Shown piece after piece: positions 12,184 to 33,123 of a stretch of DNA of 64,000 nucleotides (its first letter is position 1; each line of letters starts with the position of its first letter). A program made the translations under genes and the position numbers. Under the pieces are notes generated by a model. The model was not told the origin of the DNA. It ran no database searches and worked only from the letters and a program-made list of their open reading frames with translations. This stretch comes from an uncultured delta proteobacterium (lineage in GTDB: Bacteria > Desulfobacterota > Binatia > UBA9968): the NCBI GenBank assembly GCA_963816145.1, contig CAWFJP010000011.1, positions 224,001-288,000 on the forward strand. Direction: 5' to 3'.

Positions 12184-12199
12184 TGGTATGCCGATTGCG
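12184..12199 (+). promoter_or_regulatory. Sigma54 -24/-12 promoter of the rrf2-nxr operon
   Basis: TGGTATGCCGATTGCG has GG-N10-GC spacing, about 45 nt upstream of the Rrf2 ATG. Confidence 0.65.
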
Positions 12200-12212
12200 T
12201 CGCGATTATGCC

Positions 12213-12233
12213 AAAGGACTAAATTCATCCGTT
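12213..12233. promoter_or_regulatory. Candidate Rrf2 operator (imperfect inverted repeat)
   Basis: AAAGGAC-TAAATTC-ATCCGTT lies between the promoter and the rrf2 start. Confidence 0.35.
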
Positions 12234-12245
12234 GACTCCGACACC

Positions 12246-12653
12246 ATGAAACTCGGCAAGGAAAGCCGCTACGCGATCGAGGGACTTGTGGTCTTAGCCA
12301 AAAAGCCATTCGGCACAACCATGCAATTGCGAGATATTGCCGCGGCGGCAGGAGTTCCCTCCAACTTTCTAGCGAAGATATTCCAAAAGCTCGGCCGGGC
12401 GAGCATCCTTGTCTCCTCCCGCGGCGCCGTTCGCGGCTACGCCATCGCTCGTCGGCCAAACGCCATCACGATGAAGGATGTCGTTGTCGCCGTCGAGGGC
12501 AGCGATGTTTTCGATCGCTGCATTTTTTGGCGCGATCGCTGCGCCGATCTGTCTCCCTGCCCGATGCATTCCGAGTGGAAACAGATGCGCCAAGCCATCG
12601 CCAGGCGGATGCATGGGATAACCTTGGCGGACTTAGCGAGAAAAAAACGGTGA
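12246..12653 (+). CDS. Rrf2-family Fe-S transcriptional regulator
   Basis: SRYAIEGL, FLAKIFQKL, SSRGAVRGYAIAR, and three Cys in CIFWRDRCADLSPCPMH. Confidence 0.88.
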   Translation: MKLGKESRYAIEGLVVLAKKPFGTTMQLRDIAAAAGVPSNFLAKIFQKLGRASILVSSRGAVRGYAIARRPNAITMKDVVVAVEGSDVFDRCIFWRDRCADLSPCPMHSEWKQMRQAIARRMHGITLADLARKKR

Positions 12654-12698
12654 AGCGCATTTGATCGATCCGACAACGATCCGGGGAGGGACCCTGAG

Positions 12699-14279
12699 AT
12701 GAAATTGTTTTTTGCTTCGATGATCGCGCTGGTTGTCGTTTTATGCGGCCTCGCAGTCATCAAATCCGCGGAAGTCAAATCACCTCCTGCTTCCTCTCAA
12801 CTCATTGCGGTCGGCAAGCAGCTCTACGGCCAGCAATGCGCCGCTTGCCACGGCACCACCGGCCGTGGCGACGGCGAAGCGGCTTATCTCTTGTATCCCA
12901 AGCCGCGCGATTTCGTTGCCGCCAGGTATCGCTTGGTTTCCACTTGGGAGCGCGTCCCGACCGATCAGGATCTGTACGACACCATCACTCGCGGCATGCC
13001 GGGTTCGGCCATGCCATCTTGGGGACATCTGACGCCCGAGCAACGTTGGGGCTTGGTCCACTACATCAAATCGCTGGCTGAGAAGCCGCTGGAAATTAAA
13101 CCGTCGAAAGCTCCCAACGCCGACGGCAGCGGCGGTCAGGGAGTCATTCAACCGCCGCCGCAACTGCCATTCGATAGCGCGGCTAGAACCCGAGCTTTGG
13201 AACTGTACAAAGAAGCCTGCGCTTCTTGCCACGGCGCGACGGCAAGAGGCGACGGCACAGAGAAGCAGGTCGACGAAGAAGGCTATCCAACCCGTCCGCG
13301 CGATCTCACCGCCGGTATTTTCAAAGGCAACCATGATCCGCTTTCGCTCTACCGCCATATCGTTGCCGGCATTCCTGGTAGCCCGATGCCGATGAGCGAC
13401 TGGGCCTGGGGCAATGACGCCTGGCATCTGGTCAATTACGTGCGTTCTCTTTCCAGTGACACGCAGCGTGCGCGTGTCGAGATGAAAAAATTCATCATTC
13501 AGGCAGAGCGCGTCAAAACTCTTCCCGATCATCCCGAGTCCGGTATCTGGCGCAGCGCGCCGCCGGTCAATCTTCACCTGATGCCGCTTTGGTGGCGCAG
13601 CGAAAGACCGGAGGAAGTGACCGTGCGTGCCGTCCACGATGGCAAAGAGCTGGCGATCCTGATGGTCTGGCGCGATGATACCAACGACCAGACCGCTGTG
13701 CGTCCGCAGGATTTTCGCGATGCCGCCGCAATCCAATTTTCGTTGACCGCAAACCCACCGTTTTTCGCCATGGGCGCCACCGGCGCGCCGGTGAATATCT
13801 GGATGTGGAAATCCGAGCGGCAAGCCGATCTGGATCTCGCCTTTCAGGACATCGAGAGAGCTTATCCAAATATCGGTATCGATTCCTACCCCAATTCGAT
13901 GCGCTCAGCCGTCGAACAGCCGTCTCGACACGCTCTGACGTTGCAATCGGACCCGACATTCGTCACCGGCTGGGGCGCAGGGAATATCGTTTCTGATCCG
14001 CAGCGAAAAAGTGCTGTCGAAGATCTTGCGGCCCAAGGATTCGGCACATTACGAGCAAGACCGAGGATCGAACAAAAGATTGACGCCCATGGAGTCTACG
14101 GACTGGGTTCCTATGCGGTCATGTTCCGCCGAACGCTGACACCGACCGGTGAAGGAGCCGTGGCACTGAAACCGGGCTCGACCCTGCCCGTCGCCTTTGC
14201 CGTCTGGAACGGCAGCGCGGGAGATCGCGACGGCAAGAAATCGGTGACTATTTGGCAGGATCTGAAGATTGCTAAGTAG
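12699..14279 (+). CDS. nxrC: Periplasmic diheme cytochrome c fused to an ethylbenzene-dehydrogenase-type heme b domain (NxrC-like gamma subunit)
   Basis: Signal peptide; CAACH and CASCH; C-terminal FRDAAAIQF...FFAMG...PVNIWMWK...AFAVWNGSAGDRDGKKSV. Confidence 0.75.
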   Translation: MKLFFASMIALVVVLCGLAVIKSAEVKSPPASSQLIAVGKQLYGQQCAACHGTTGRGDGEAAYLLYPKPRDFVAARYRLVSTWERVPTDQDLYDTITRGMPGSAMPSWGHLTPEQRWGLVHYIKSLAEKPLEIKPSKAPNADGSGGQGVIQPPPQLPFDSAARTRALELYKEACASCHGATARGDGTEKQVDEEGYPTRPRDLTAGIFKGNHDPLSLYRHIVAGIPGSPMPMSDWAWGNDAWHLVNYVRSLSSDTQRARVEMKKFIIQAERVKTLPDHPESGIWRSAPPVNLHLMPLWWRSERPEEVTVRAVHDGKELAILMVWRDDTNDQTAVRPQDFRDAAAIQFSLTANPPFFAMGATGAPVNIWMWKSERQADLDLAFQDIERAYPNIGIDSYPNSMRSAVEQPSRHALTLQSDPTFVTGWGAGNIVSDPQRKSAVEDLAAQGFGTLRARPRIEQKIDAHGVYGLGSYAVMFRRTLTPTGEGAVALKPGSTLPVAFAVWNGSAGDRDGKKSVTIWQDLKIAK

Positions 14280-14282
14280 CGA

Positions 14283-14374
14283 CGGTTCAACCCCCACCTC
14301 TTTCCTCCCCCGCGGCGCGGGGGAGGATGAAGGAGGGGGATTGAACGACTGGAACCACTGGAACGATTGGAACG
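14283..14374. repeat. Palindromic intergenic element, nxr copy 1
   Basis: Core CCTCCCCCGCG-N-CGCGGGGGAGG with flanking TGGAACNAY 9-mers. Confidence 0.85.
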
Positions 14375-14398
14375 CGAGCGACGACAGGAGCGAGAAAA

Positions 14399-17300
14399 AT
14401 GAACGACGATGAAGCCAGAGCGATGAGCGCGAATCACCCGCCGTGATTTTCTCAAGTGGATGGGCATCGGCACCGGCGCAGCGGCCATCGCTGCCGGTTC
14501 TTTGCACTATTTCAGACCGGCAGACGGCGGCGACAATCCCCTTGCCCGATCGATCAATCGAGAATGGGAAAAGATTTACCGGGATCAATACAAATTCGAT
14601 AGCGCTTTTGACTGGGTCTGCTCGCCAAACGACACCCATGCGTGCCGAGTGCGCGCTTACGTGCGCAATGGCATCGTCACCCGCATGGGAGCCACCTACG
14701 ATTACCAAAACTACGCCGATCTTTACGGCAACAAAGCAACCGTCAATTGGAATCCGCGCCAGTGCGCCAAGGGCTACACTTTTCATCGCGTCATCTATGG
14801 CCCCTACCGGCTGCGCCATCCGATCGTGCGCAAAGGTTGGAAGGCTTGGGCGGATGCCGGCTTTCCCGAACTCACGCCGGAGAACAAAACCAGATACATG
14901 TTCGACGCCCGCGGCCAAGACGAGTTCGTGCAGATTTCCTGGCCGGACGCCTTCGACAACATCGCCAAGGCGCTGGTCGCGATTTCTACCCGTTACAGCG
15001 GCGACGCCGGAAAGAAACTTCTCCTGGCACAAGGTTACCAACCGGAAATGGTCGAAGAGATGGGCGGCGCCGGCACGCGTACGGTAAAAATGCGCGGCGG
15101 TATGGGCTTGCTTGGCGTGATCGGCAAGTACGGCATGTACCGCCTCAACAATTCACTGGCGCTGCTCGATGCCAAGATCCGCGGCGTCGGTCCCGAGAAG
15201 GCCCGCGCCGGGCGCAATTTTTCGAACTATACCTGGCATGGCGATCAAGCGCCGGGCCATCCCTGGGTGCACGGCCTGCAGGCGTCGGAGTGCGACTTCA
15301 ACGATTTGCGTTTTTCCAAACTCATCATCATGGACGGCAAGAACCTGGTCGAAAACAAGCTCACCGACTCGCACTGGTTTATCGAGTGCATGGAGCGCGG
15401 CGCGAAGATCGTGGTGATCGCGCCGGAATACGGCCCGCCGTCGACCAAAGCCGACTACTGGATTCCGATTCGCCCGCAGACCGACGCCGCGCTTTGGCTC
15501 GGCGTTACTAAGCTGATGATCGACAAGCAATGGTACGACGAAACTTTCGTCAAGCGCTTCACCGATTTCCCGCTGCTCGTGCGCACGGATAATTTGAAGC
15601 GGCTGCGCGCCCAGGAAATTTTTGCCAATTACAAAACCAGTCTGTCGGCTGACGGCCCGTCGATGAAGGTGCAAGGTCTGACCGCCGAGCAGCACGCCCA
15701 GCTTGGCGACTTCGTGATTTGGGATGGGAAGACGAACGGCCCGGTGGCAATCACGCGCGATGATGTGGGCGAGACTATGGCAAAAAAAGGCTTGGACCCA
15801 GCGCTCGCCGGCACTTTCAAGGTCAAACTCACCGACGGCAAAGAAGTCGAAGTCGCAACGCTTTGGACGCTTTATCAAACCCATCTGAAGGACTACGACC
15901 TCGATACGGTAGCCGAGATCACCCAGGCGCCGAAAGCGATGATCGAGCAGCTGGCGCAAGATATCGCGACGATGAAACCGGTGGCGATTCATCAAGGCGA
16001 GGGCATCAACCACTGGTTCCACGCCACGGAAATGAACCGCGCAGCATACTTACCGCTGATGCTGACGGGCAACATCGGCAAGCCGGGCGCCGGCTGCCAC
16101 ACCTGGGCGGGCAACTACAAAGCGGCCCTCTTTCAGGGCTCGCCCTGGACCGGTCCTGGCTTTAAAGGCTGGGTAGCGGAAGACCCGTTTGAGATCAACC
16201 TCAATCCGAAGGCTGACGGCAAAGAGATCCATGCTCATGCTTACACCAAAGACGAAGAGCCGGCTTATTGGAATCACGGCGATCTCGCTTTGATCGTCAA
16301 CACGCCGAAGTTTGGCCGCAAAAACTTTACCGGCAAGACCCACATGCCGACGCCCACCAAAGCCCTGCTCTTCAACAACGTCAACCTGATCAATAACGCC
16401 AAGTGGGCCTACGGCATGATCAAGAACGTCAATCCCAATGTGGAAATGATCGTTTCGATGGACATTCAGATGACCGCTTCCATCGAGTATGCCGACCTCG
16501 CGCTGCCGGCCAACTCGTGGCTCGAATTCGAAGGATTGGAAATTACCGCGAGCTGCTCGAATCCTTTCCTGCAAATTTGGAAAGGCGGTATTGCGCCGGT
16601 CTTCGACAGCAAAGATGACCTCGACATCATCGCCGGCATCGCCAATGCGCTCGCCAACGTCACCGGCGAGAAACGATTCCGCGATTACTTTGCCTTTGCC
16701 GCCGCCGACAAACGGGGCGTTTACATCCAGCGCCTGCTCGACACCTGTACGACGACGGCCGGTTACAAGCTCACCGATATCATGGCCGGCAAGTACGGCC
16801 CGTCGGGCGGCTGCTTGCTGAACTTCCGCACCTATCCGCGCATTCCCTTCTATGAACAGGTGCACGACAGCGAACCGTTCCATACGGACACAGGACGGAT
16901 GCACGCCTACGCGGACGTGCCGGAAGCGATCGAGTACGGCGAGAACTTCATCGTGCATCGCGAAGGGCCGGAAGCGACACCCTATTTGCCCAACGTCATC
17001 GTCAGCTCCAATCCGCTCGTGCGACCCGAGGACTATGGCATCCCTGCCAAGGCCGAGCACTGGGATGAGCGCACCATCCGCAACATCAAGATGCCCTGGA
17101 GCAAGGTCAAGCAGAGCAAAAACTTTCTCTGGGAAAAGGGCTTCCAGTTTTACTGCTTGACACCGAAGACGCGCCACCGGGTGCATAGCGGCTGGTCGAA
17201 CGTCGATTGGCACATGCTGATGGACTCCAACTTCGGCGATCCCTACCGCCTGGACAAGCGCGCCCCCTGCGTCGGCGAACATCAACTGCACATGAATCCC

Positions 17301-17868
17301 CAGGCAGCTCGCGATCTTAACATCAACGACGGCGACTACGTTTACGTCGACGCCAACCCGGCCGATCGGCCCTACCTCGGCGCGAAACCAGATGATCCGT
17401 TCTATCGCGTGTCGCGCCTGCATGCTGCGCGTGACCTATAACCGCGCTTATCCGTACAACATCGTGATGATGAAGCATGCACCGTTCATCGCCACGGAGA
17501 AAAGCGTCAAGGCGCACGAAACCCGGCCCGACGGCCGCGCGTTGTCGGCGAACACCGGCTACCAGGCCAATCTGCGCTACGGCTCGCAGCAATCGATCAC
17601 GCGCAATTGGCATATGCCGATGCATCAGACCGACACGCTGTTTCACAAGTCGAAAGCTTTCATGAGCTTTATTTTCGGCGGCGAAGCCGACAATCACGCC
17701 GTCAACACCGTGCCCAAAGAAACCCTCGTCCGCGTCACCAAAGCGGAAGACGGCGGCATGGGCGCCAAAGGCATCTGGAAACCAGCGACGTCGGGACACT
17801 CGCCGGATAACGAGAACGATCTGATGAAACGATATCTGGCGGGAGATTTGACCAAGGTGAAAACATGA
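14399..17868 (+). CDS. nxrA: Periplasmic (Tat) nitrite oxidoreductase/nitrate reductase alpha subunit, anammox/Nitrospira type; two +1 frameshifts (~14426, ~17420)
   Basis: ATG 14399 follows AGGAG. Tat motif RITRRDFLK is in frame with ORF 14460. WEKIYRDQY..., FS0 motif CSPNDTHAC...NPRQCAKG, Mo-ligand region YTWHGDQAPG. C-terminus is in ORF 17392..17868 (GSQQSITR, NTVPKETLVRVTKAEDGG). About 1155 aa when repaired. Confidence 0.9.
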
Positions 17869-17875
17869 AGCGAGA

Positions 17876-18001
17876 CCGTTCCACAAGTTCCAACCGTTCC
17901 AATCGTTTCAGCCCCCACCTCTTTCCTCCCCCGCGTCGCGGGGGAGGACGAAGGAGGGGGATTGAACTTCTGGAACAATTGGAACCTGGAACGACTGGAA
18001 C
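17876..18001. repeat. Palindromic intergenic element, nxr copy 2
   Basis: Same core, with GTTCCA arms on the left and TGGAAC arms on the right. Confidence 0.85.
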
Positions 18002-18023
18002 CCGAGCGACGAAGGAGCGAGAG

Positions 18024-18455
18024 ATGCCCTTTAAAGACCCCGATCCCACCGATCCGAACATGCTCGTCGGCGTGATGTTGCCGGCGGACGCGGAAGCGAC
18101 CCGCGATATGGCCTATGTCTTCGCTGAAGAATTCGCGCGCATGGGTTACAACCGCGAGCAGTTGCTCTGGCTGTTCAAGAATCCCTTCTACGGCGGCGCC
18201 CATGGCGCGTACCGGGCGCTCGGCGAACAAGAAACTCTGGCGATCATCGATGAATGTCTGAACGTTTGGGGAAACATTCGGGTTCGGTTCTGGATTTTCG
18301 ACGTTCAAGCGATCAAACTGCCAGCCTCCGACCTCCCCCGCGACGCGGGGGAGGATGAAGGAGGAGGCTTGAACGGAGCGCAGCGTGTTGAACGGAATCG
18401 AATGATCGAACGATTGAACGGAATCCAAATTCGAGCGACGAGAGGAGCGAGATGA
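18024..18455 (+). CDS. Small conserved-looking nxr-associated protein; 3' end runs through repeat copy 3
   Basis: GAAGGAG RBS; MPFKDPDPTDPNMLVGV...FAEEFARMGY...LFKNPFYGGAH. The natural end is probably near 18300. Confidence 0.65.
   Translation: MPFKDPDPTDPNMLVGVMLPADAEATRDMAYVFAEEFARMGYNREQLLWLFKNPFYGGAHGAYRALGEQETLAIIDECLNVWGNIRVRFWIFDVQAIKLPASDLPRDAGEDEGGGLNGAQRVERNRMIERLNGIQIRATRGAR
18303..18421. repeat. Palindromic intergenic element, nxr copy 3 (degenerate)
   Basis: CCTCCCCCGCGACGCGGGGGAGGATGAAGGAGG followed by TTGAACG repeats. Confidence 0.75.
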
Positions 18456-19721
18456 TGAGCTAAGGTTCACAACTGGCAGATCGGCCGGGAAATGAATTAT
18501 CCCTACCCGCAAGCATTCCCGCGCCAACAATTCGCCTTCGTCTTCAACATCAACCGCTGCATCGCCTGTCAGAGCTGCACGATGGCCTGCAAGTCCACCT
18601 GGACCTTCAATAAGGGCCAGGAGCATATGTGGTGGGCCAACGTCGAGACCAAGCCCTACGGCGGCTACCCGCAATTCTGGGACGCCAAGATTCTCGACCT
18701 CCTGGAACAAGCCAACCCCGGCAACCAGCAATGGTCGGGAAAACCGTCCAACGATAAAAACAAACCTTACGGCCAGTTCGACGGCAAGACGATTTTCGAA
18801 GCGCAAAACATGCTGACGCCGGACAGCGCCCGCGTGCTCGGCTATCTGCCGACCGACGAAGAATGGAACTTGCCGAATATTTTCGAAGACAATCCGGTCG
18901 GCAAACGAGGGGTGCGCAACGAGATCGACAAGGAAGGCACGGCGCTGCCAGAGCATAAGACCTGGTTCTTCTATCTAGCGCGCATCTGCAACCACTGCAG
19001 CTATCCGGCCTGCCTGGCCGCCTGCCCGCGCAAAGCGATCTACAAAAGGCCCGAAGACGGCATCGTACTAATCGATCAGAAGGAATGCCGCGGCTACCGC
19101 AAATGCGTTGAAGCCTGCCCGTACAAAAAGTCCATGTACCGCGGCAACACCCGGGTGTCGGAAAAATGCGTCGGCTGTTATCCACGCGTCGAAGGGAAAG
19201 ATCCGGAAAGCGACGGCCAACCGATGGAAACCCGTTGCATGGCCGCCTGCATCGGCCAGATCCGCATGCAGGGTCTGGTCAAGATGAACAACGACGGCAG
19301 TTGGGCCGAAGACCGCTACAACCCGCTCTACTATATGGTCAAGGTCGCCAAAGTTGCCCTGCCGCTTTATCCGCAGTTCGGCACCGAGCCCAATGGTTAT
19401 TATATTCCGCCGCGTTGGGTGCCGCGGGAATATCTGAAGCAGATGTTCGGTCCGGGCGTCGACGAGGCGATCGAGCGCTACAGCTATCCCGATCGCGAAT
19501 TGTTGGCGGTCTTGCAGCTATTCCGCCGCTCGAATCGGATTATTTTCCGCTACGAAATCAAAGAAGGGCCGAAAGTCTACGAAGCGACGCTCAGGGGGCG
19601 CAAGGTCACCCTGTATAACGACACCGTGATCGCCTACGGCCAAGACAATAAAGAGATCTTCCGCACCCAGATCGAAGAGCCGGTGCACGTGCGGCCGAAC
19701 AAGCATGCGAACTCCATATGA
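18455..19721 (+). CDS. nxrB: Nitrite oxidoreductase/nitrate reductase beta (Fe-S) subunit, anammox-like; +1 frameshift right after the start
   Basis: KVHNWQIGREMNYPY lies upstream of the ORF-track start. CIACQSCTMAC, CNHCSYPACLAAC, CRGYRKCVEAC, C-terminal EEPVHVRPNKHANSI. Confidence 0.92.
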
Positions 19722-19727
19722 ATCAAA

Positions 19728-19860
19728 CGCGTTCCAGCCGTTCCACCGCTGCGCTCCGTTCCAGTCGTTCAACCCCCTCCTTCATCCTCCCCCGCGACGC
19801 GGGGGAGGAAAGAGGTGGGGGTTGGATCGATTGGAACGATTGGAACCACTGGAACCAACC
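19728..19860. repeat. Palindromic intergenic element, nxr copy 4 (core inverted)
   Basis: CCTTCATCCTCCCCCGCGACGCGGGGGAGGAAAGAGGTGGGGG with GTTCCA/TGGAAC arms. Confidence 0.85.
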
Positions 19861-19878
19861 GAGAAATGAGGCAACTCC

Positions 19879-24792: not shown

Positions 24793-24801
24793 GAGACAGT
24801 T

Positions 24802-26103
24802 ATGGCCGAAACAGCAGCAGCAGAAAAAACTCAGTATCAGGGTCAGATGCATCTTCTGCAGAAGGAAATGATGGGCCGCTACTTTGACCGCGTCACCCGT
24901 GCCGCGGAACAGGGCGAAGGCAAAGCCGTCTACATGCTGATCAGCGGCAATCCGGTGGAGCTCATCCAGGCCTTCGATCTGATTCCGGTCTATCCTGAAA
25001 TTGACGCCCTGCAGCTGGCGGCGAAGAAGAGCGCCCTGCCCTTCATCCTCAAGGCCGAAGAGTTGGGCTACTCGATGGACAACTGCGCCTATGTGAAAGC
25101 CGATGTCGGTCTGTTTCTCGGCGACCGCAAGACCCCGTTCGCAACCATCCCGCTGCCGTCGCTGATTCTCTGCAACTATGTCGGCTGCAATGTCTACTTG
25201 CAGTGGTTCGAGCACCTGGCCGAATACTGCGATGGGCAACTCTACAACCTCGACATCCCGTTCTTGCGCGACCCCTCCGGCGTGCCGAGCGCGGCGGACG
25301 TCACCTACGTCGTGCGCCAGCTCGAAGAAGTGATCGAAGTCTGCGAGCGATTGACCGGCAAGAAACTCGACTACGCACGGCTCAAACAAATCGTCGGCCG
25401 GTCGAGCGAAACCGGCCAAATGTGGGCGCGGATCAAAGCGCTGACCAAGAATCTGCCGTCACCCTTCGACGCCTATTTCGACTCGGTGACCATGATGGCG
25501 CCGCTCTATTGTCTGCGCGGAACCGAAGAAGGCGTGCGCTTCTTCGAGACCGCCCTCAAGGAGATGGAAGAGAAAGTGCGCCTGGGCCAGGGGCCGTTAC
25601 CCCAGGAGCGCTTCCGCTTCGTCATCGAAGGGCCGCCGCCTTGGGGCCATCTGCGAACCTTTAGAGATATGTTTTCCAAATGGGGCGCGGTGGCGGTGGC
25701 GTCGACTTACTCCACCGTCGGCGGCCTGTGGGAATTCGGTTTTCACCACGACTCCAATCACCCCTTGGAATCCATCGCTCAGCATATGCTCCAATGGAAC
25801 GTGACCAACCGCAACTTCCTGCAACGCTACCAACAGATTCGCCGCTACGTCGAAGAGTGGCATGCCGACGCGCTGGTGATTCACTCGGTGAAGAGCTGCC
25901 GGCTTTTCTCCGCCGGCCAGGGCGACATGCGGGAATATTTCACCAAAGAGCTGAACGTTCCCACCCTTTTGATCGAATCGGATCTTGAAGATCCGCGATA
26001 TTTTTCCGAAGCCCAGCTCAAAAACCGGGTCGACGCATTTTTCGAATCGTTGGAACACAAGAAAATGGTCCGTGCCGGCGCGGAAGCGGGAGGCGCAACA
26101 TGA
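24802..26103 (+). CDS. bcrB: Class I benzoyl-CoA reductase subunit B (BcrB/BadE)
   Basis: [56 protein letters not shown]. Confidence 0.88.
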
Positions 26104-26933
26104 TTTACGCCGCTGGCATCGACGTTGGTTCGACTCAGACCAAAGGGATTATCCTCAACGACAAGTTCGAGATTGTCGCCCGGGCTTTGACCGACACCGG
26201 CGCTTACGTGACCCGGGCCGCTGAACGGTGCTTCGTCGAAGCGCTGCAGGCATCCGGCGTCAAGCGCGAAGATGTCGCCTATGTCGTCGGCACCGGTTAT
26301 GGCCGCTACAAGGTGACCTTCGGCGACGCGCAGATTACCGAAATCAGCTGCCATGCGCGCGGCGCCAGCTACCTCTTTCCCAAAACCCGCACCGTGATCG
26401 ACATGGGCGGCCAGGACGCCAAGGGCATCAAGATCGGCGTCGACGGCGATGTCAAAGACTTCGTCATGAACGATAAATGCGCCGCCGGCACGGGAAGATT
26501 TCTCGGCAGCGCCGCCGACGCTCTGGCGATTCGCCTGGACGATATCGGCGACATATCCCTCAAGGCCAAAAACCCGGTGCGCCTCACCACCGTGTGCACG
26601 GTGTTCGTCGAGTCGGACATCATGTCTTACCTCGCCCAGGGCAAGAAGACCGAAGACATCCTCGGCGGCGTGCACAGCGCCATCGCCGCTCGGACCATCT
26701 CCTTGATTCGCCGCGTCGGCATCGAGCCGGAGGTGACTTTTACCGGCGGGGTGTCAAAAAACATCGGCATGGTGCGCGCCCTCGAAGAAAAACTCGGCAT
26801 GAAACTCAACGTCAGTCCGGATTCCCATTTCGTCGGCGCCCTGGGCGCGGCCATCTTCGCCCTGGAGCGGGCAACGAAGTCGATGGGCGAAATGCAAAGA
26901 GCAACAGGAGGCGAGGCGGGCCCTAGTGCCTAA
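26100..26933 (+). CDS. Benzoyl-CoA reductase ATPase (ASKHA) subunit, short BcrA/BzdQ-like
   Basis: [47 protein letters not shown]. Confidence 0.88.
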
Positions 26934-26961
26934 TGCCTATTGCCTAATTTAAGGAGGCATC

Positions 26962-27789
26962 ATGACATTTGTCGCGGGCATCGACATGGGCGCCAAATCG
27001 ACCAAGGCGGTGGTCTTGGATGGGGAGAAACAAATTTGTGGCAAGGCCGCGATCAAAACCCGTCCGGATTTCGCCGCGGTTGCCAAGGAGGTGCTCGACT
27101 TGGCGCTGCAGCAGGCTGGGCTCAAAGAGAATGACCTGAACTACATCGCCACCACCGGCTTCGGCCGCTACAATGTGCCGTTCCGCGACGTTCAGATCAC
27201 CGACATCACCTGCGTCGGCCGCGGCGCGGTTTTTCTCTTTCCCAAGACCCGCTGCGTGCTCGACATCGGCGCCCAGAGCACGCGGGCGCTGCGGGTCAGC
27301 GACACCGGCAAGGTGCGCGAGTTCCGCACCAACGATAAGTGCGCCGCCGGCGCCGGCGGCTTCATCGAGCGCGCTTGCAAATATCTCGAGGTCAAGATCG
27401 ATCAGGTCGGCGATCTCTCCATCCAGGCCACCAAGCCGCAAACCATCAGCAGCGTGTGCGCCGTGTTGGCCGAATCGGAGATCATCAATCATGTCTCCAA
27501 CGGCGAGACCATCGAAAACATTCTGCGCGGCGTGCACAACTCGCTCGCTTCGCGGGCGCTCGCCTTGCTCAAGCGCTCGGGCATGGAAGACGAAGTCACC
27601 TTCGTCGGCGGCGTGGCCCGGCAAAAAGGCATGGTCAAAGCCCTTGAGGAAACGCTCAAGCGCAAGGTCAACGTCAGCGACGAGCCCGAGTTGGTCGGCG
27701 CGCTGGGCGCGGCCCTGCTGGCGCTGCGCCGGCTGGAAAAACTCCGCACCGAGAAAGCAAATCCTGTCGAAGAAGCGAGGGTGGCATAA
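26962..27789 (+). CDS. Benzoyl-CoA reductase ATPase subunit, BcrD/BzdP-like
   Basis: GIDMGAKSTK, TTGFGR, LDIGAQ, NDKCAAGAG, SSVCAVLAESEIIN. Confidence 0.85.
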   Translation: MTFVAGIDMGAKSTKAVVLDGEKQICGKAAIKTRPDFAAVAKEVLDLALQQAGLKENDLNYIATTGFGRYNVPFRDVQITDITCVGRGAVFLFPKTRCVLDIGAQSTRALRVSDTGKVREFRTNDKCAAGAGGFIERACKYLEVKIDQVGDLSIQATKPQTISSVCAVLAESEIINHVSNGETIENILRGVHNSLASRALALLKRSGMEDEVTFVGGVARQKGMVKALEETLKRKVNVSDEPELVGALGAALLALRRLEKLRTEKANPVEEARVA

Positions 27790-28551
27790 TGGATCTTCAA
27801 AACAAGTCCGCATTGGTGGCCGGCGGCGGCGGCGGTATCGGCCGGGCGGTGGCGTTGGCGTTGGGGCGCGCCGGGGCGAAGGTAGCCGTCGCCGACATCG
27901 CCAAGGACAACGCCGAGAAAGTCAAATGCGGAAGTCCAAGGCCTCGGCGTGGGCGCCATGGCCTGCCCGGTGGATCTGACTCGCAAGGCCGACGTCGACC
28001 GCATGGTCGGCGAAATCATCGAGCGCTTCGGTCAGATCGATATCCTGGTCAACTGCCAGGGCTGGGATCGGCTCGAGCCCTTTGTCGAAAGCGACGAAGC
28101 GACTTGGGAAAAACTCTTGGCGATCAATTTCAAATCGGTGCTGTACACGGCCCGCGCGGTCTTGCCGAACATGATCTCCCATAACTTCGGCAAGGTCGTC
28201 AACATCAGCTCCGACGCCGGCCGGGTGGGATCGAGTTGGGAAGCGGTCTACGCCGGCGCCAAGGGCGCGGTCATCGCATTTTCGAAAACCATCGCCCGCG
28301 AGGTCGCGCGCTACCACATCAACGTCAATGTCGTCTGCCCAGGGTTGACGGAAACGCCGCTACTGCAAGCCGTGCGCAGTCAATCGGAACAGACCGCGAG
28401 AATCATCGATGCGGTGACCAAGGCGACCCCCTTCCGCCGTCCGGCGCAACCGGAAGAGATCGCCAACGCCGTTCTGTTTCTTACCTCGCCAGAGGCTGGT
28501 TTTATCACCGGCCAAACGCTGAGCGTGAGCGGCGGACTGACGATGGTGTGA
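27789..28551 (+). CDS. badH: BadH-like SDR (2-hydroxycyclohexanecarboxyl-CoA dehydrogenase family); +1 frameshift ~27927
   Basis: GGGGGIG, GWD..EPF, SDAGRVGSS.EAVYAGAKG, VVCPGLTET, GQTLSVSGGLTM. Confidence 0.72.
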
Positions 28552-28561
28552 AGGGAAGTTA

Positions 28562-28612
28562 CCAGAACTCAGAAGTCAGCATTCAGAATATTCTGGCTCC
28601 TGACTTCTGAAT
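28562..28612. repeat. 7-mer-based palindromic intergenic element
   Basis: CAGAACTCAGAAGTCAG...CTGACTTCTGAATTC. Confidence 0.6.
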
Positions 28613-28637
28613 TCCCAATGACAAGGAGACGAATTCC

Positions 28638-29492
28638 ATGCGTAACGGAATCAACGCCATCGACATCATGTACTACGTCGCCACGCCGGAGTTTATTCAG
28701 CGCTGGAACGATGCGAAAAAAGGCGAGCTGATTTGCCGCATGGAAAAAGCCATCGGCGGCCTGCCGCAGTTCGACAGCTTCGACGCCATGCTCGCCAAAA
28801 TGGACGAAGCCGGCGTGGCAAAAGTTTTTATCACCCAGACCAAGATGTGGTCGTACCGCAACAAGTGGATGTACATGGACACCCAACTCGAAGAAGTCGC
28901 CCAGTACACCCGGCGTTATCCCGACCGCTTCGTCGGGCTCGCCGGCTACAACCCCTTTCGCATCAAAGAGTCTCTCGCCGAAATCGACTGCGCGGTCAAA
29001 GAGCATGGCTTCAAGGGCGTCTACGTGCACATCTACGGTTTCGATATCCCGCTGCACGACGCGAAAATGTATCCGCTCTACGCCAAGTGCGACGAACTCA
29101 AGATTCCCGTCTCGCTGCAAGTCGGCCATGTGTTGGAAGCGATGCCGAGCGAACATGCCCGGCCGATCTACTTGGACCGCATCGCCAGCGATTTTCCCGA
29201 ATTGAAAATCGTCGGCGCCCACACTGGCTGGCCCTGGGTCGAGGAGCTGATCTCGGTTTGCTACAAGTGGGACAATGTCTATTTCGGCGTCGACGCCTGG
29301 ATGCCCAAATACCTGAAGCCCGAGATCATTCACTACATCAACAGCCGTATGGGCCAGGACCGCTGCCTGTGGGGCACCAACGGTCTGCCCTGGAAAGAGA
29401 GTCTGGACCAATGGGACGAGATGGGGCTGAAGGAAGCGACCAAGAAAAAACTGCTGCACGATAACGCGGCTGAGCTGTTTGGATTGAGCTAA
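28638..29492 (+). CDS. Amidohydrolase_2 family protein
   Basis: YPDRFVG, YPLYAKC.EL.IPV, DFPELKIVGAHTGWPW, WGTNG. Confidence 0.85.
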   Translation: MRNGINAIDIMYYVATPEFIQRWNDAKKGELICRMEKAIGGLPQFDSFDAMLAKMDEAGVAKVFITQTKMWSYRNKWMYMDTQLEEVAQYTRRYPDRFVGLAGYNPFRIKESLAEIDCAVKEHGFKGVYVHIYGFDIPLHDAKMYPLYAKCDELKIPVSLQVGHVLEAMPSEHARPIYLDRIASDFPELKIVGAHTGWPWVEELISVCYKWDNVYFGVDAWMPKYLKPEIIHYINSRMGQDRCLWGTNGLPWKESLDQWDEMGLKEATKKKLLHDNAAELFGLS

Positions 29493-29512
29493 CCCGCAGG
29501 GAGGAGAACGCC

Positions 29513-29761
29513 ATGATGTGCCGATTCCTAAACGCCGATTTCGAACTCTCGCTCCAATGTCCGGTCGACAAGCGTAATCATAGCGTCCGGTTCCAAGCTT
29601 ATCCCCAGTTGCGCGACCATGCGTTGGACGTGGTTGCCTGCGATGCCGCGCCCGAGGTCGAAAAGCTGACCTGTGGCAAAAATTGCCGGGCACTGATTGA
29701 GAGCGGCCTCTACTGGCAAAGGATTTATCCCGAGTCGGCGATTTACACGCAAGACCAATGA
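29513..29761 (+). CDS. Small Cys-rich hypothetical protein
   Basis: GGAGGAG RBS; five Cys (CRF, CPVD, VACD, TCGKNC); lies within the operon. Confidence 0.6.
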   Translation: MMCRFLNADFELSLQCPVDKRNHSVRFQAYPQLRDHALDVVACDAAPEVEKLTCGKNCRALIESGLYWQRIYPESAIYTQDQ

Positions 29762-29806
29762 AGAGTTTTCTATTGGCTGAGCGAACCGGAAGCTGGCGCA
29801 ACTGGA

Positions 29807-30598
29807 GTGAATGATTCCATGTACCAAACTCTGCAATATCGAGAAGACGGCGCGGTGGCGACCATTCGACTGAACCGGCCACAGAAAAAGAATTCATTCA
29901 ATGGCGAGATGCGCCAGGAGCTCGAGCAGGCGCTGCAAGCAATCGCGGACCAAACCGAATTACGAGCGGTGGTCATCACCGGCGGCGACGAGATTTTTTG
30001 CGCCGGCGCCGACATCGGCGAGATGGGCGGCGACCCCAACGCCGAATCCTCGTACCGCCACGCGCGCGAGTTCCAGATTCTGTTCGATCAAGTGGAGTCG
30101 CTGCCGCAACCGGTGATCGCCGCGGTGTCCGGTTATGCGCTCGGCGGCGGCTGCGAGTTGGCCTTGGCGGCGGATTTTCGTATCGCCTCGGAGAGCGCGC
30201 GCTTCGGTCTGCCGGAAATAAAAATCGGCGCCTTTCCCGGCGGCGGCGGGACGCAAAGATTGACCCGTTTGATCGGCGCCGCCAAAGCCAAAGAATTGAT
30301 CCTCCTCGGCGATCCGATCACGGCCGAGCAGGCGCTCGCTCTCGGCTTGGTGATGAAAGTCGCGCCCAAGGACAAGTACATGGCGGAAGCCATGGAACTC
30401 GCCGTCAAGCTCGCCGCCCTGCCCCGCCTGGCGCTGCAAGCCTCGAAAATGTTGATCAACCGCAGCCAGGATGTCGACCTGGCCACCGGCCTGGAGTTCG
30501 AAGCGCGCACCTTCGGCGCCATCGCGCACTCACATGATTTGGCCGAGGGCACCCGAGCGTTTTTGGAAAAGCGTAAGCCTAATTTCACCGGCCATTGA
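29807..30598 (+). CDS. Enoyl-CoA hydratase (crotonase)
   Basis: FCAGADI, GGGCELALAADFRIA, PEIKIG.FPGGGGTQRL. Confidence 0.9.
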   Translation: MNDSMYQTLQYREDGAVATIRLNRPQKKNSFNGEMRQELEQALQAIADQTELRAVVITGGDEIFCAGADIGEMGGDPNAESSYRHAREFQILFDQVESLPQPVIAAVSGYALGGGCELALAADFRIASESARFGLPEIKIGAFPGGGGTQRLTRLIGAAKAKELILLGDPITAEQALALGLVMKVAPKDKYMAEAMELAVKLAALPRLALQASKMLINRSQDVDLATGLEFEARTFGAIAHSHDLAEGTRAFLEKRKPNFTGH

Positions 30599-30657
30599 AA
30601 GCGCCGGCAGAGAAGTTACCGTCAGGACAATACCATCAATCGGAGGATACCCAGAGC

Positions 30658-31453
30658 ATGACCTACAACAGCTTCGTTTTCGAAAACAACGACGGCGTGG
30701 CGACGATCAGACTGAACGACCCGGAGCATCTCAACGCGCTGACCTTCCAAGTCTATGGCGATCTGGAAAAGATCTTCGCCGAATTCGCTCATGACACGTC
30801 GGTCAAGGTCGTTGTCTTGACCGGCACCGGCAAAGGTTTTTGCTCCGGCGGCCGGGTCGACGACATCATCGGCCCGCTGCTGAAAATGAAAGGCGACGAG
30901 CTCTACAAGTTTACGCGCATGACCTGCAACGTCGTCAAGAACATGCGCAACTTGAAAAAGCCCATCATCGCCGCGGTCAACGGCATCGCCGCCGGCGCCG
31001 GCGCCATGTTGATGCTGGCGTCCGATCTGCGGATTTTTTCCGACAAGGCGCGCGCCGCTTTTCTCTTTGTCAAAGTCGGCTTGTCCGGCGCCGACATGGG
31101 CGCGCTCTACCTGCTGCCGAGGATCGTTGGCCTGGGCAAAGCCACCGAGCTGGTCTACTTCGGCGATACCATCGACGCCCAGGAAGCCCACCGCATCGGC
31201 TTGGCCAATCGCGTCGTCGCCGGCGAGACCTTAATGGAGGAAGCTTACAAGTGGGCCAATCGCCTGAAAGACGGGCCTTTGTACGGGCTCGGCGTCACTA
31301 AAGAGCTGCTCGAATACGAGGCCAACGTGAATTTGGAAACGGCCTTGGAAATGGAAGCAGCCGCGCAGGCGCGCTGCATGGAGACGCCCGGATTTTATCG
31401 AGGGCTACAACGCGTTTGTCGAAAAGCGACCGCTGCGCTTTAACCGCGGCTGA
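30658..31453 (+). CDS. Crotonase-family protein, AbmC/PRK08258-like; +1 frameshift ~31389
   Basis: FCSGG.V.DIIGPL.KM, FTRMT, FLFVKVGLSGADMGA. The repaired end is ETPDFIEGYNAFVEKRPLRFNRG*. Confidence 0.8.
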
Positions 31454-31476
31454 GAGCGGCACAGGAGGAAAACAAC

Positions 31477-31926
31477 ATGGCAAAAAATATTCACATCAGA
31501 AGCCTCGAAAAAGGCGATCTGGCGGCGATCGTCAACATGGAAGAACGCCAAACCGGCGTAGCCCGGCTCGACTATTGGGAGAAGCGGTTCGAAATCTCCG
31601 AAGCCATAAGGCCGCACTGGGCATCACTTGTCGCCGAATTCGATAACCGGGTCGTCGGATTTATCCTGGGCCGGGCCGGTGAACAGGAATTCGGGCTGCC
31701 TGGTACGGTGGCATGGGTCGAGATGATCGGTGTCGATCCAGCCTACCGCCGTCGCGGCGTTGCCGAAGAGCTGATGGAGCAATTCACCGAGTCGGCTGAA
31801 GACCACGGCATTAAGACCATCTTCACGTTGATCGATCCGAACCGATCTGATTTGCAGCATTTTTTCAGCAAGCTCGGTTTCGAGCACGGCAAGATGGTGC
31901 ACTATCAGAAGGATCTGTCGACCTAA
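31477..31926 (+). CDS. GNAT acetyltransferase (BadL-like)
   Basis: VVGFILG, IGVDPAYRRRGVA, FFSKLGF; located in a bcr cluster. Confidence 0.8.
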   Translation: MAKNIHIRSLEKGDLAAIVNMEERQTGVARLDYWEKRFEISEAIRPHWASLVAEFDNRVVGFILGRAGEQEFGLPGTVAWVEMIGVDPAYRRRGVAEELMEQFTESAEDHGIKTIFTLIDPNRSDLQHFFSKLGFEHGKMVHYQKDLST

Positions 31927-31971
31927 CTCGGCATCGTTGCGGGCTCACCGCCGAGTAAAAGGAATCAACCG

Positions 31972-33123
31972 ATGGATTTCGAATTGTCGGAGGAATTGGC
32001 CGAAGTACAAAAACTGGCCCGCGACTTTAGCGAAAAGGAAATCGCCCCCAATGCCGCCAAGGACGATCGGGAACATATCTTTCGCCGAGATCTCGTCAGC
32101 AAAATGGGCGAGCTCGGCTTTTATGGCTGTCTGATTCCAGAGGAATATGGCGGCAATGGCCTGGGCTTTCTCGCCCACGCGCTGATCTCCGAAGAAATCG
32201 GCCGGGTCCATAGCGCCATCCGGGTTTACTTGAACATGCAAGCCGGGCCGGCGGTCACACTCTACGAGTTCGGCAATGAAACCCAGAAGAAAACTCATCT
32301 GCCCAAGCTATTGAGCGGCGCAACCAATGGCTTATTCGCCATCACCGAACCCGATGCCGGTTCGGATGTCGCGGCGATGAAAACCACCGCCAAGCGCGAT
32401 GGCAGCAGTTATATCCTCAACGGCACGAAGATCTGGATCACCAATGCAACCGTGGCCGACTTCGGCGTGATCTTCGCTTACACCGATCGCGCCCAGAAAC
32501 ATCGCGGCATGTCGGCTTTCTACGCCGACTTGAATCAACCGGGGGTGAGCCGGCGCGAACTCGACAAGCTGGGTGCCCACGCCTCACCGACCGGTGAATT
32601 GACCTTCGAGAATTTCCGGATTCCGGTGGAAAATTTAATCGGCCAGGAAGGCGACGGCTTCAAGATCTGTATGCGCCACTTGAATCACACGCGCCTGGGC
32701 TGTGCCGCCGGCGCCGTCGGTCTCGCCACGGCGGCGCGCGAGGCCGCGGTGAGCTACGCCAACCAGCGCGAGCAGTTCGGCCAGAAAATCGGCCAGTTTC
32801 AAATGAATCAGGATCTGATTGCGCAAATGGTCGTGCAGGAAGAAGCGGCGCGCTTGTTGGTTTATCGCGCGGCATGCCTCGCCGATCGCGGCCGACCCTA
32901 CAACTTGGAAGCCTCCATGGCGAAATACGCTGCCGCCGAAGCGGCGGCGTTCTGCGCGGACAACGCGCTCAAGATACTCGGCGCCTATGGCTACTCGACA
33001 GAATTTCCCGTTGAGCGTTACTATCGCGACGCCAAGTCCTATCAGATCGTCGAAGGCTCAGTGAACATTCAAAAGCTCATCATTGGCCAGGACGCCTTGG
33101 GTTATCGCAAGGCGAACCGATGA
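31972..33123 (+). CDS. Acyl-CoA dehydrogenase (glutaryl-/cyclohexanecarboxyl-CoA DH-like)
   Basis: TEPDAGSD, NGTKIWITN, REQFG, ERYYRDAK..QIVEG. Confidence 0.9.
   Translation: MDFELSEELAEVQKLARDFSEKEIAPNAAKDDREHIFRRDLVSKMGELGFYGCLIPEEYGGNGLGFLAHALISEEIGRVHSAIRVYLNMQAGPAVTLYEFGNETQKKTHLPKLLSGATNGLFAITEPDAGSDVAAMKTTAKRDGSSYILNGTKIWITNATVADFGVIFAYTDRAQKHRGMSAFYADLNQPGVSRRELDKLGAHASPTGELTFENFRIPVENLIGQEGDGFKICMRHLNHTRLGCAAGAVGLATAAREAAVSYANQREQFGQKIGQFQMNQDLIAQMVVQEEAARLLVYRAACLADRGRPYNLEASMAKYAAAEAAAFCADNALKILGAYGYSTEFPVERYYRDAKSYQIVEGSVNIQKLIIGQDALGYRKANR

Follow-up and report, generated by a model that had tools for sequence, protein, structure and literature searches.

The soluble, periplasmic type of nitrite/nitrate oxidoreductase (NXR) is represented by NxrABC of Kuenenia stuttgartiensis (PDB 7B04); Nitrospira and Nitrospina have a periplasmic NXR of the same type, and the enzyme is reversible. 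Class I benzoyl-CoA reductases (BCR), among them BcrCBAD of Thauera, BzdNOPQ of Azoarcus and MbdONQP (PDB 9G87 and 9GAI), are characteristically found in facultative anaerobes that respire nitrate or are phototrophic, and the nitrate-respiring benzoate degraders Thauera, Aromatoleum and Magnetospirillum use NarGHI or Nap. Both enzyme families are known, as are NXR-like genes in organisms that are not nitrifiers, Binatia included. The DNA stretch of 64,000 nucleotides (nt) analysed here, which is part of contig CAWFJP010000011.1 from an uncultured Binatia bacterium and is referred to as a whole as the window, carries one gene cluster of each kind on its plus strand, nxr at 12184-22803 and bcr at 23622-33123. 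The cluster limits given in an earlier interpretation of the bare letters (the sequence-only reading) hold: the last nxr gene, encoding an FmdE-MobB fusion, stops at 22803 and the first BCR open reading frame (ORF) starts at 23622 (or 23634), which leaves a gap of approximately 0.8 kb. What is new is that a known reversible enzyme is found in a repeatedly assembled genomic partnership, which suggests the direction in which it is used.

With rather more belief than doubt, we favour the reading that the window holds two adjoining, separately transcribed sigma54 units, of which the first (12184-22803) provides an NXR acting as respiratory nitrate reductase for the anaerobic aromatic degradation encoded by the second (23450-33123, with a divergently promoted rubrerythrin-like gene). 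Under anoxia, benzoate-type acids would be activated to their CoA esters and the ring reduced by BCR; electrons from the subsequent oxidation steps would flow via the quinone pool to a cytochrome bc complex and from there, carried by c-type cytochromes, reach the cytochrome c-NxrC protein, and nitrate would be converted to nitrite at NxrA. The NXR would in this way replace NarGHI or Nap as the high-potential acceptor needed by the ATP-consuming BCR. What is observed is the gene content with its family assignments, the conservation of the promoters, a genome in which Nar and Nap are lacking and the recurrence of the adjacency; in which direction the enzyme runs, by which path electrons reach it and that the two units are induced together is inferred.

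The nxr cluster is comprised, in this order (12246-22803, plus strand), of genes for an Rrf2-family regulator, a dihaem cytochrome c-NxrC fusion, NxrA, a small ORF, NxrB, NxrD, a conserved hypothetical protein (orf338) and the FmdE-MobB fusion. NxrA, the molybdopterin subunit (14427-17868), is present as two ORFs (14460-17441 and 17392-17868), which match the Kuenenia chain 7b04_B with 1535.6 bits (query residues 12-988; Kuenenia residues 25-1002) and 219.8 bits (Kuenenia residues 1001-1146), respectively. Other alpha subunits score far lower against it (PcrA 190.1, EbdA 169.3 and NarG 114.1 bits), and by this gap an ethylbenzene dehydrogenase (EBDH)-like hydroxylase, a (per)chlorate reductase and a selenate reductase were ruled out as its identity. 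The sequences CSPNDTHACR and WHGDQAPGHP, which we take to be the FS0 site and the Mo-ligand site, are identical in the Kuenenia chain. The twin-arginine motif ITRRDFLKW lies in frame immediately 5' of the ATG at 14460, so that NxrA is predicted to be a substrate of the twin-arginine translocation (Tat) system, as expected of the periplasmic NXR clade. NxrB, the Fe-S subunit (18492-19721; PF13247), matches 7b04_A over residues 1-409 with 588.1 bits. The gamma subunit is part of a 526-amino acid (aa) protein (12699-14279) which joins a signal peptide and a dihaem cytochrome c (CAACH and CASCH; PF00034, PF13442) to the haem b domain of NxrC (EB_dh; PF09459); its residues 36-252 match the Kuenenia dihaem cytochrome 6h5l_B (129.6 bits) and its residues 307-523 match NxrC itself (7b04_C, 102.3 bits). 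A chaperone of the TorD/NarJ type, NxrD, is encoded at 19879-20685 (PF02613, 69.4 bits; TIGR03482, 95.8 bits, which is under the cut-off of that model). The assignment to the periplasmic clade made by the sequence-only reading is borne out by the NxrA and NxrB scores and the Tat motif, and the cluster, with its Fe-S beta subunit, haem b gamma domain and chaperone, is predicted to encode a soluble periplasmic NXR-type nitrate/nitrite oxidoreductase.

The likeness to the Kuenenia enzyme thus extends over the alpha, beta and gamma subunits, the Tat motif, the TorD-type chaperone and the presence of extra genes between nxrA and nxrB. In contrast to Kuenenia, where the cytochrome is a separate protein (6H5L_B), NxrC of the window is fused to an N-terminal dihaem cytochrome c, a fusion which is found in most of the 80 nxr loci described below. 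The window cluster further differs in standing behind a sigma54 promoter with an Rrf2 regulator and in adjoining a benzoyl-CoA pathway, and in belonging to a host genome in which neither of the CO2-fixation markers RuBisCO and CdhC was found (anammox genes were not searched for). The physiological direction of the window enzyme, in contrast to that of Kuenenia, is probably nitrate reduction.

The bcr cluster starts with genes for a BcrC/MbdN-like subunit of the HGD-D family (23622-24792; PF06050 on both halves; alternative start at 23634 behind a conserved GGGGTGG) and a BcrB/MbdO-like subunit (24802-26103), followed by two ATPase subunits. The first ATPase (26100-26933; PF01869, 234.5 bits) is MbdQ-like, being of the BcrA/BzdQ type without the long N-terminal extension, and matches MbdQ (9gai_D) over residues 1-257 with 380.2 bits compared to 184.9 bits for MbdP with the same query; the second (26962-27789; PF01869, 207.9 bits) is BcrD-like by family model. 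Two unlike HGD-D-type genes (PF06050) and two unlike BcrAD-type ATPase genes (PF01869) in one operon are the composition of a class I BCR, as in Mbd, Bcr and Bzd. The best models for all four subunits are the benzoyl-CoA reductase subunits A to D, yet the scores remain below the equivalog cut-offs of both Bcr and Bzd: the two halves of BcrC score 197.2 and 119.8 bits with TIGR02263 (cut-off 421.15), BcrB scores 304.6 bits with TIGR02260 (cut-off 486.55), the second ATPase scores 188.5 bits with TIGR02261 (cut-off 312.85), the BcrA model gives 210.5 bits against a cut-off of 578, and the Bzd models of NCBIfam are lower still. MbdQ and MbdO are the best PDB matches (BcrB: 251.2 bits with the MbdO chain 9g87_A, a moderate similarity, versus 100.7 bits with BzdO), which may point to an affinity to the Mbd type, a type without a family cut-off that was compared by score only. 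A 2-hydroxyacyl-CoA dehydratase was considered in place of a BCR and rejected, as the scores with the HadB and HadC models are lower (193.8 and 142.5 bits) and the operon includes two unlike ATPase genes.

Genes of a CoA-ester pathway follow on the same strand. They encode a BadH-like short-chain dehydrogenase (SDR; 27789-28551; adh_short on both pieces, and TIGR03206 with 238.2 bits on the piece of 200 aa, compared to a full-length cut-off of 431), an Amidohydrolase_2 family protein (28638-29492; PF04909, 130.5 bits; no NCBIfam match), two members of the enoyl-CoA hydratase family (ECH; 29807-30598 and 30595-31443; PF00378, the second with 343.5 bits to PRK08258, cut-off 330), a GNAT acetyltransferase (31477-31926; PF00583) and a glutaryl-CoA dehydrogenase of the GlutCoADH_Des type (Acd; 31972-33123; NF045552, 491.2 bits, cut-off 470). 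None of the Dch, Oah and BadI models is among the best 25 NCBIfam matches of either ECH, and no Dch, Had or Oah equivalog was found with NCBIfam in the bcr cluster of the window; in this composition of its downstream genes, and in having a sigma54-type promoter with a divergent rubrerythrin-like gene, the cluster is unlike Mbd, Bcr and Bzd. The BCR claimed by the sequence-only reading is nevertheless present as a four-subunit class I-type reductase followed by CoA-ester pathway genes, and the reductase is predicted to depend on ATP and to be a class I aryl-CoA reductase, with Mbd as its nearest type.

Five 1-nt insertions specific to the window, which had gone unnoticed in the sequence-only reading, break the start of nxrA (near 14425), nxrA (17420), bcrC (24266), the SDR gene (27930) and the end of the second ECH gene (31390). 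These breaks are the one feature that would speak for clusters of decaying pseudogenes with genuine frameshifts in nxrA, bcrC, SDR and ECH, a reading that we hold to be very improbable. Contigs of other public runs (X1, DNA, which may be the source sample; X15 and X16, RNA libraries, matched at no less than 92%) omit one letter at every insertion place: the depth without the extra base is 12.1 of 12.1 (X1), 19.1 of 23.8 (X15) and 20.9 of 20.9 (X16) at 17420, 10.3 of 10.3 (X1) and 10.2 of 10.2 (X15) at 27930, and, at 24263/24267, 8.59 plus 5.8 of 14.4 (X1) and 19.4 of 19.4 (X16). The extra base is likewise missing from related loci, at 17420 in L002, L003, L004 and L078 and at 24266 in L002, and the insertion near 14425, by which the in-frame Tat start of NxrA is lost in the window, is absent from the other runs. 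The coding sequences are otherwise intact, with 95-96% protein identity to relatives. The five insertions are therefore probably assembly errors (consensus indels), and pseudogenes were rejected as the explanation of the split genes on the evidence of the relatives and the other-run contigs. An M4 peptidase gene elsewhere in the window is split in the same way (46544-47155 and 47146-47970), as fits consensus indel errors, and an MFS fragment lies at 60858-61289; the assembly, this suggests, carries indel errors throughout. Misassembly of the junction at 22.8-23.6 kb, which the sequence-only reading had named as a possible source of error, is unlikely, since the gene order is the same in five other loci (L002, L008, L009, L022 and L078), the spacing is the same in two genomes of the family (G011 and G121), and an X1 DNA contig covers 22638-23483 with one differing letter.

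The genome to which the window belongs (7.8 Mb in 31 contigs, 56-57% G+C, 99.5% complete, 6.7% contamination) has its closest public contigs, with NxrA 95-96% identical, under the label Candidatus Binatia. It contains one nxrA and one BCR (BcrB). The sequence-only reading had pointed to NarGHI, NapA and CO2 fixation as what the rest of the genome should be checked for: neither NarG (best match 72.8 bits, cut-off 1084) nor NapA (no match reaching the cut-off) was found in the genome, nor were RuBisCO and the CdhC subunit of acetyl-CoA synthase, while the absence of a match to ATP-citrate lyase (PF16114) is uninformative, as the control matched in no genome. NXR is the only candidate dissimilatory nitrate/nitrite molybdoenzyme of the genome. 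Two benzoate-CoA ligases above the cut-off are encoded on other contigs, and cytochrome b of bc-type complexes as well as two haem-copper oxidase subunit I genes (COX1; 504 and 477 bits) are present; the organism looks, from its gene content, like a facultatively aerobic heterotroph. As in Thauera, Aromatoleum and Magnetospirillum, an ATP-dependent BCR and benzoate-CoA ligases would thus be combined with a high-potential nitrogen-oxide acceptor, but in contrast to these organisms no NarG or NapA was found and the sole candidate is an NXR-type enzyme that is physically linked to bcr.

The pairing of nxr and bcr, known to the sequence-only reading from one contig, is shared by relatives and is seen again in other phyla. 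Of 151 genomes sampled from the same class, 17 were found to have NxrB of this clade (at least 64% identity), 12 a BcrB-like protein (E-value of at most 1e-30) and seven both. Within the family of the window, G011 and G121 show the same order and strand with a 5.25-kb spacing between nxrB and bcrB, in G145 a single contig carries both genes, bcrB lying 18 kb upstream of nxrB, and G002 is cut at contig ends; in the two class members outside the family that have both genes (G004 and G148), these are on different contigs. A search with nxrA, using one genome per species, retrieved 462 related stretches, of which the best 80 were kept as loci (L numbers). Forty-three of the 80 have at least 8 kb downstream of nxrA, and their downstream flanks were surveyed for ORFs of at least 170 aa: 75 ORFs of L005-L045 by Pfam at 1e-8 and then 10 by NCBIfam, 77 ORFs of L046-L073 by NCBIfam at 1e-60 only, and 35 ORFs of the seven loci with BCR by tblastn (L038 and L056 also partly by NCBIfam).

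Class I BCR genes occur at seven of the 43 loci, namely four of the Binatia type, L022, L056 and L038. The gene order of the window, including a 189-aa gene between the clusters, is shared by L002, L008, L009, L022 and L078; L022, which is labelled Acidiferrales, shows the complete window architecture with the 189-aa gene and the sigma54 element. In L056, labelled Neomarinimicrobiota, a radical SAM gene, bcrCBAD and an Oah-like gene succeed one another, and in L038, an Eiseniibacteriota chromosome, Thauera-type BcrCBAD genes (BcrB 737.7 bits, cut-off 486.55; BcrD 365.7 bits, cut-off 312.85; BcrA 577.7 bits, cut-off 578) are convergent with nxr. Among 81 sampled Eiseniibacteriota genomes a BcrB-like protein was found in 27 and NxrB only in G151, so that an acquired nxr cluster appears to sit about 0.5 kb from a native bcr operon. 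Other loci carry further steps of the pathway: behind a sigma54 motif, L005 encodes Oah (525.3 bits, cut-off 464.45) and a Dch-like protein; L035 encodes Had (511.5 bits, cut-off 338.65), Oah (580.4 bits) and likewise a Dch-like protein; L045 encodes a member of the benzoate-CoA ligase family (492.2 bits, cut-off 375.25); and in L006, counted as probable only, a UbiD-family decarboxylase is accompanied by an ECH and by a ligase whose score falls slightly short of the cut-off. Anaerobic ring-reduction or ring-opening genes directly follow nxr at nine of the 43 loci, to which one locus with the ligase and the probable one can be added. Other neighbours of nxr vary with the lineage, among them nosZ (L030) and NnrS (L027 and L040).

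In a FastTree phylogeny of 76 NxrA segments (L042, L051, L074, L077 and L078, with short or broken matches, were left out), the seven rows labelled with BCR require at least five changes, and the linked loci occupy the Binatia clade, the positions of L022, L038 and L045, and a clade that contains L056 as well as L035. One metagenome-assembled genome (MAG) labelled Acidiferrales has two nxr clusters, L016 and L022, whose NxrA proteins are far apart on the tree: that of L016 lies inside the Binatia clade and that of L022 near the base of the tree. L022 has the Binatia-type bcr architecture, and the whole points to gene transfer or a mixed bin. The sequence-only reading had called this NXR clade best known from nitrite oxidisers and anammox bacteria; the clade itself stands, but it is not special to these organisms, since the 462 related stretches lie in genomes of many heterotroph-like phyla, and the MAGs that supplied the 80 loci kept belong to numerous phyla without known nitrifiers.

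The recurrent adjacency to an oxygen-sensitive, ATP-consuming reductase, together with the absence of Nar and Nap from the window genome and from G153-G155, in which neither was found, argues for NXR as a nitrate reductase. Parts of nxrA, nxrB, bcrC, bcrB and the ATPase genes are represented among the RNA-library contigs of two soil studies (X15 and X16), which is compatible with expression of both clusters but is not proof of their co-expression. The same comparisons can be extended into a broader proposition, to which we give somewhat less than even credence: that in Binatia, Acidobacteriota, Eiseniibacteriota, Neomarinimicrobiota-labelled and unclassified lineages the trihaem-NxrC type of NXR has been repeatedly and independently recruited beside benzoyl-CoA genes as the dedicated terminal nitrate reductase of a widespread guild of anaerobic aromatic degraders in soils and sediments.

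Several observations weigh against NXR as a nitrate reductase serving aromatic degradation. The direction of catalysis is not readable from the sequence, the enzymes of the periplasmic clade are known as nitrite oxidisers, and with two haem-copper oxidases in the genome aerobic nitrite oxidation via cytochrome c is equally possible on gene content. The nitrite that would be formed has no evident sink: with the NirK, NirS, NrfA and NirB models no nitrite-removing enzyme was found in the genome (no match to NirK, one unconvincing 30.7-bit match over part of the NirS profile, one 23.2-bit match to NrfA under the cut-off, and none above the cut-off for NirB), unlike the situation in Thauera, Aromatoleum and Magnetospirillum, where nitrite is reduced further. 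The first 10 kb downstream are free of benzoyl-CoA pathway genes above a family cut-off at 33 of the 43 loci, with L006 only probable, and in the family of the window G038 has bcr without nxr and G105 nxr without bcr; as kin are not independent, the counts also overstate the number of events. The distant genomes with linkage G151 and G152 have NapA above the cut-off (one copy and two, respectively), and NXR is therefore not their only candidate nitrate reductase. In two Methylomirabilota loci COX2 and COX1 directly follow nxr (L021, 11070-13711; L034, 18858-21426), which places the same enzyme type in oxidase contexts as well. The RNA-library contigs may stem from relatives or from carried-over DNA, and the reductase subunits below the equivalog cut-offs, together with the lack of Dch, Had and Oah, leave as a possible substrate a substituted benzoyl-CoA or another aryl-CoA.

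These oxidases, the oxidase neighbours of nxr in L021 and L034, the NapA genes of G151 and G152, the missing nitrite reductase and the nitrite-oxidising reputation of the clade would all suit an NXR that works as a nitrite oxidase, as an energy supplement or for nitrite detoxification, with electrons passing via c-type cytochromes to aa3-type oxidases; the adjacency to BCR would then reflect island structure or hitch-hiking and no shared physiology. We regard this as unlikely, although it deserves to be weighed seriously, for the adjacency is to an oxygen-sensitive, strictly anaerobic pathway and recurs in 9-10 of the 43 loci and at several places on the NxrA tree, neither RuBisCO nor CdhC was found, and the genome combines a class I BCR with no other dissimilatory nitrate reductase. 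The contrast between loci with BCR and loci with COX genes hints that the neighbourhood of nxr tracks the direction in which the enzyme is used.

A gene that the sequence-only reading did not record lies between the two clusters. It encodes a protein of 189 aa on the minus strand (22834-23403), is convergent with nxr and divergent from bcr, and is kept beside bcr in the five loci that share the window's order. The protein has no match in Pfam or NCBIfam; in an Atlas feature search it scored 0.94-0.95 to clusters with PF02915 in 14-46% of their members, and as a lead only it is probably a rubrerythrin/ferritin-like di-iron protein, which may shield the oxygen-sensitive reductase. With this convergent, separately promoted gene between them, the two clusters do not form one unit.

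The -24/-12 motifs of the sigma54 type reported earlier were confirmed before both units, at 12184-12198 for the Rrf2-nxr unit (TGGTATGCCGATTGC, plus strand) and at 23581-23595 for the bcr unit (TGGCATTACGATTGC, plus strand); both have the canonical GG-N10-GC spacing, and each runs on into CGATTGCGT. The element before Rrf2 is kept in all three loci having Rrf2 (L009, L010 and L078), and that before bcrC in all five loci holding the region (L002, L008, L009, L022 and L078), with the GG and TTGC blocks invariant and the spacer letters variable; in L012, L016 and L018 similar elements immediately precede the gene for the cytochrome c-NxrC fusion. A further element, missing from the earlier reading, faces the 189-aa gene on the minus strand (23450-23464; GCAAG...TGCCA invariant in alignment A1), so that the bcr region holds two divergent sigma54 elements. 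With four occurrences in the window, where 0.50 would be expected, the pattern TGGYAYN5TTGC reaches a number not attained in any of 100 shuffles, and three of the four flank the nxr and bcr clusters; the genome, which has one copy of rpoN, contains 131 matches against about 56 expected under an independent, identically distributed letter model. No sigma70-like site was found in either intergenic region by a simple consensus scan. The fourth motif of the window (TGGTATATTTATTGC, 45802-45816, minus strand) is located about 96 nt upstream of a minus-strand ORF at 44930-45706.

Two dyads accompany the promoters. Between the divergent elements of the bcr region lies a palindrome (TTCTGATTATTGAGAA, 23492-23507), whose TTCTGA-N4-TGAGAA pattern is largely kept in all six sequences of alignment A1 and which is a candidate activator site for the bcr and rubrerythrin-like pair. 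An AT-rich dyad at 12113-12135, about 60 nt 5' of the nxr -24 element, is a conserved block in alignment A2, reads TTTTCC-N7-AAAAAA in the window and TTTTCT-N7-AGAAAA in relatives, and is a candidate site for an activator or for integration host factor (IHF). The sequence-only reading had taken GCAATTTTCT for a motif shared by both upstream regions. It is indeed present at 12151-12160 and 23489-23498, but it is not conserved at the nxr site in any of three relatives, and at the bcr site only its TTCTGA is conserved in relatives; the chance that two regions of about 300 nt share a 10-mer is roughly 0.09 by our own estimate. GCAATTTTCT was consequently rejected as a shared operator and attributed to a chance match, given the absent conservation upstream of nxr. 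The common CGATTGCGT was likewise discarded as a special link, being merely an extended -12 consensus that is variable in relatives, and a shared TTCT-N-AGAA dyad was discarded as well, the strict form TTTCT-N6-10-AGAAA being found upstream of none of the 131 sigma54-like sites.

That both units form one regulon, controlled by a single sigma54 enhancer-binding protein at a common upstream motif, is in our judgement improbable. Conserved -24/-12 elements with an identical extended -12 at both units and TTCT...AGAA-type dyads in both upstream regions are what such a regulon would show; in the count of TTTTC/GAAAA upstream of the 131 sites the nxr site moreover ranks first, and in L005 oah is preceded by a comparable AGAAAATTTTTCT element and by two divergent sigma54 motifs. 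The bcr site, by comparison, ranks only 29th in the same count, the relaxed pattern TTCT-N6-10-AGAA is found at six of the 131 sites, with the bcr pair but not the nxr site of the window among them, and the two dyads differ in half-site sequence and in spacing (N7 versus N8), that of nxr being degenerate in the window. To this come the lack of conservation of GCAATTTTCT in the three relatives and the failure of the strict dyad at all 131 sites. Enhancer-binding protein genes were not found in the window, the nearest being 46 kb and 44 kb away among about 34 strong matches genome-wide; with that many activators and 131 sigma54-like sites, two adjoining sigma54 promoters are not unusual in this genome. 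For the shared sigma54 activator put forward by the sequence-only reading there is hence no good evidence, and the adjoining clusters are better described as two separate sigma54 units.

In a Planctomycetota locus (L023, 17027-20391) a histidine kinase and an NtrC-type sigma54 response regulator are encoded directly downstream of nxr, and in an Acidobacteria locus (L047, 20525-21883) a sigma54-dependent response regulator alone takes this position; both regulators are candidates for the cognate nxr activators of those lineages. In the window, the first gene behind the nxr promoter, which was absent from the earlier reading, encodes an Rrf2-family regulator (12246-12653, plus strand; PF02082, 100.8 bits; TIGR00738, 99 bits, cut-off 73.3) of 135 aa with three cysteines (C-x6-C-x5-C), which remains under the cut-offs of the IscR and NsrR equivalog models of NCBIfam and is presumably of the Fe-S type. 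A haemerythrin-domain protein is encoded nearby, divergent from nxr (9550-10131, minus strand; PF01814, 83.9 bits; a weak YtfE/RIC match of 35.2 bits under the cut-off), and such a gene accompanies nxr in eight of the 80 loci (L004, L009, L010, L013, L014, L018, L048 and L078). A three-cysteine Rrf2 protein and an adjacent haemerythrin gene would fit a control of nxr by redox state or nitric oxide.

The remaining genes of the nxr cluster are, in part, as widely kept as its subunits. The small ORF between nxrA and nxrB (18024-18455, plus strand), which lies within a longer ORF of 196 aa (17865-18455), has a conserved part of about 88 aa (18024-18285); it gave 71 tblastn matches among the 80 loci, across phyla, with a median query range of 52-140 of the 196 aa, and matched no Pfam or NCBIfam family. 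The protein of about 88 aa is a candidate accessory protein or subunit of NXR. The gene orf338 (20634-21650, plus strand) comes after that for NxrD at the majority of nxr loci, in many phyla; its product likewise matched nothing in Pfam or NCBIfam, and the nearest Atlas clusters are unnamed hypotheticals (score 0.98). The last gene encodes an FmdE-MobB fusion (21526-22803, plus strand; PF02663, PF03205; TIGR00176, 118.3 bits, cut-off 76.2), a predicted helper in the insertion of the molybdopterin guanine dinucleotide (MGD) cofactor, whose true start is probably near 21709, where the alignment with L002 begins. Upstream of the cluster, next to the haemerythrin gene, a radical SAM/SPASM protein of family TIGR04053 is encoded on the minus strand (10159-11349; 438.2 bits, cut-off 395); it is a relative of the haem b synthase AhbD (311.5 bits, under the cut-off of 500) and is kept upstream of nxr in Binatia-type loci.

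Copies of a palindromic element of approximately 80-110 nt, similar to repetitive extragenic palindromic (REP) sequences, occupy four of the spacers between nxr genes (14283-14384, 17877-18012, 18311-18392 and 19758-19857; repeat family D1, inverted repeats I1-I10). The element forms a long hairpin with the core CCCCCGCG-N(1-3)-CGCGGGGG and GTTCCA/TGGAAC repeats on its flanks. The core occurs 28 times in the 7.8-Mb genome, and all four copies on contig C11 lie within the nxr cluster. Contigs of the RNA libraries jump between copies (joints 14395->18464 and 17869->19757), and the element may stabilise or segment the nxr mRNA.

Outside the two clusters, the window contains CoxS-, CoxM- and CoxG-like genes (2Fe-2S, FAD and CoxG; 50480-52345), with no large molybdopterin subunit adjoining them among the ORFs scanned. 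Elsewhere in the genome, the benzoate-CoA ligase model also gave dozens of matches to adenylation domains within very long ORFs, the longest of 4328 aa, on contig C3 (e.g. 113865-146821 and 581713-622805), from which it follows that the genome holds large gene clusters of the nonribosomal peptide synthetase (NRPS) or polyketide synthase (PKS) type.

Parts of this picture have precedents. A Nar/Nxr-type protein of Binatia was detected by unique peptides in river sediment, in a paper which also reports aromatic pathways of Binatia (10.1101/2022.03.11.484050); NAR/NXR is described in another study from Methylomirabilis MAGs without PMO (PMC11264602), and nxrA in a third from Marinisomatota and Planctomycetota MAGs (PMC10359470). 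The accessible parts of these accounts of NXR in MAGs make no mention of an adjacency of nxr and bcr or of sigma54 promoters, and in the accessible full-text literature, preprint supplements apart, no report was found of a linkage between nxr and benzoyl-CoA genes or of its recurrence across phyla.

The gene nxrA is a common marker for nitrite oxidation. Its recurrent linkage to BCR is a testable clue, resting on comparative evidence only, that NXR reduces nitrate in many of these organisms. Should this be true, a sizeable share of the nxrA counted in environmental samples would report nitrate reduction and not nitrification, and gene surveys would have to be re-read; anaerobic aromatic degradation in soils and wetlands would gain a new respiratory partner; and the neighbourhood of the gene would predict the direction of the enzyme, a BCR context indicating reduction and a cytochrome c oxidase context oxidation.

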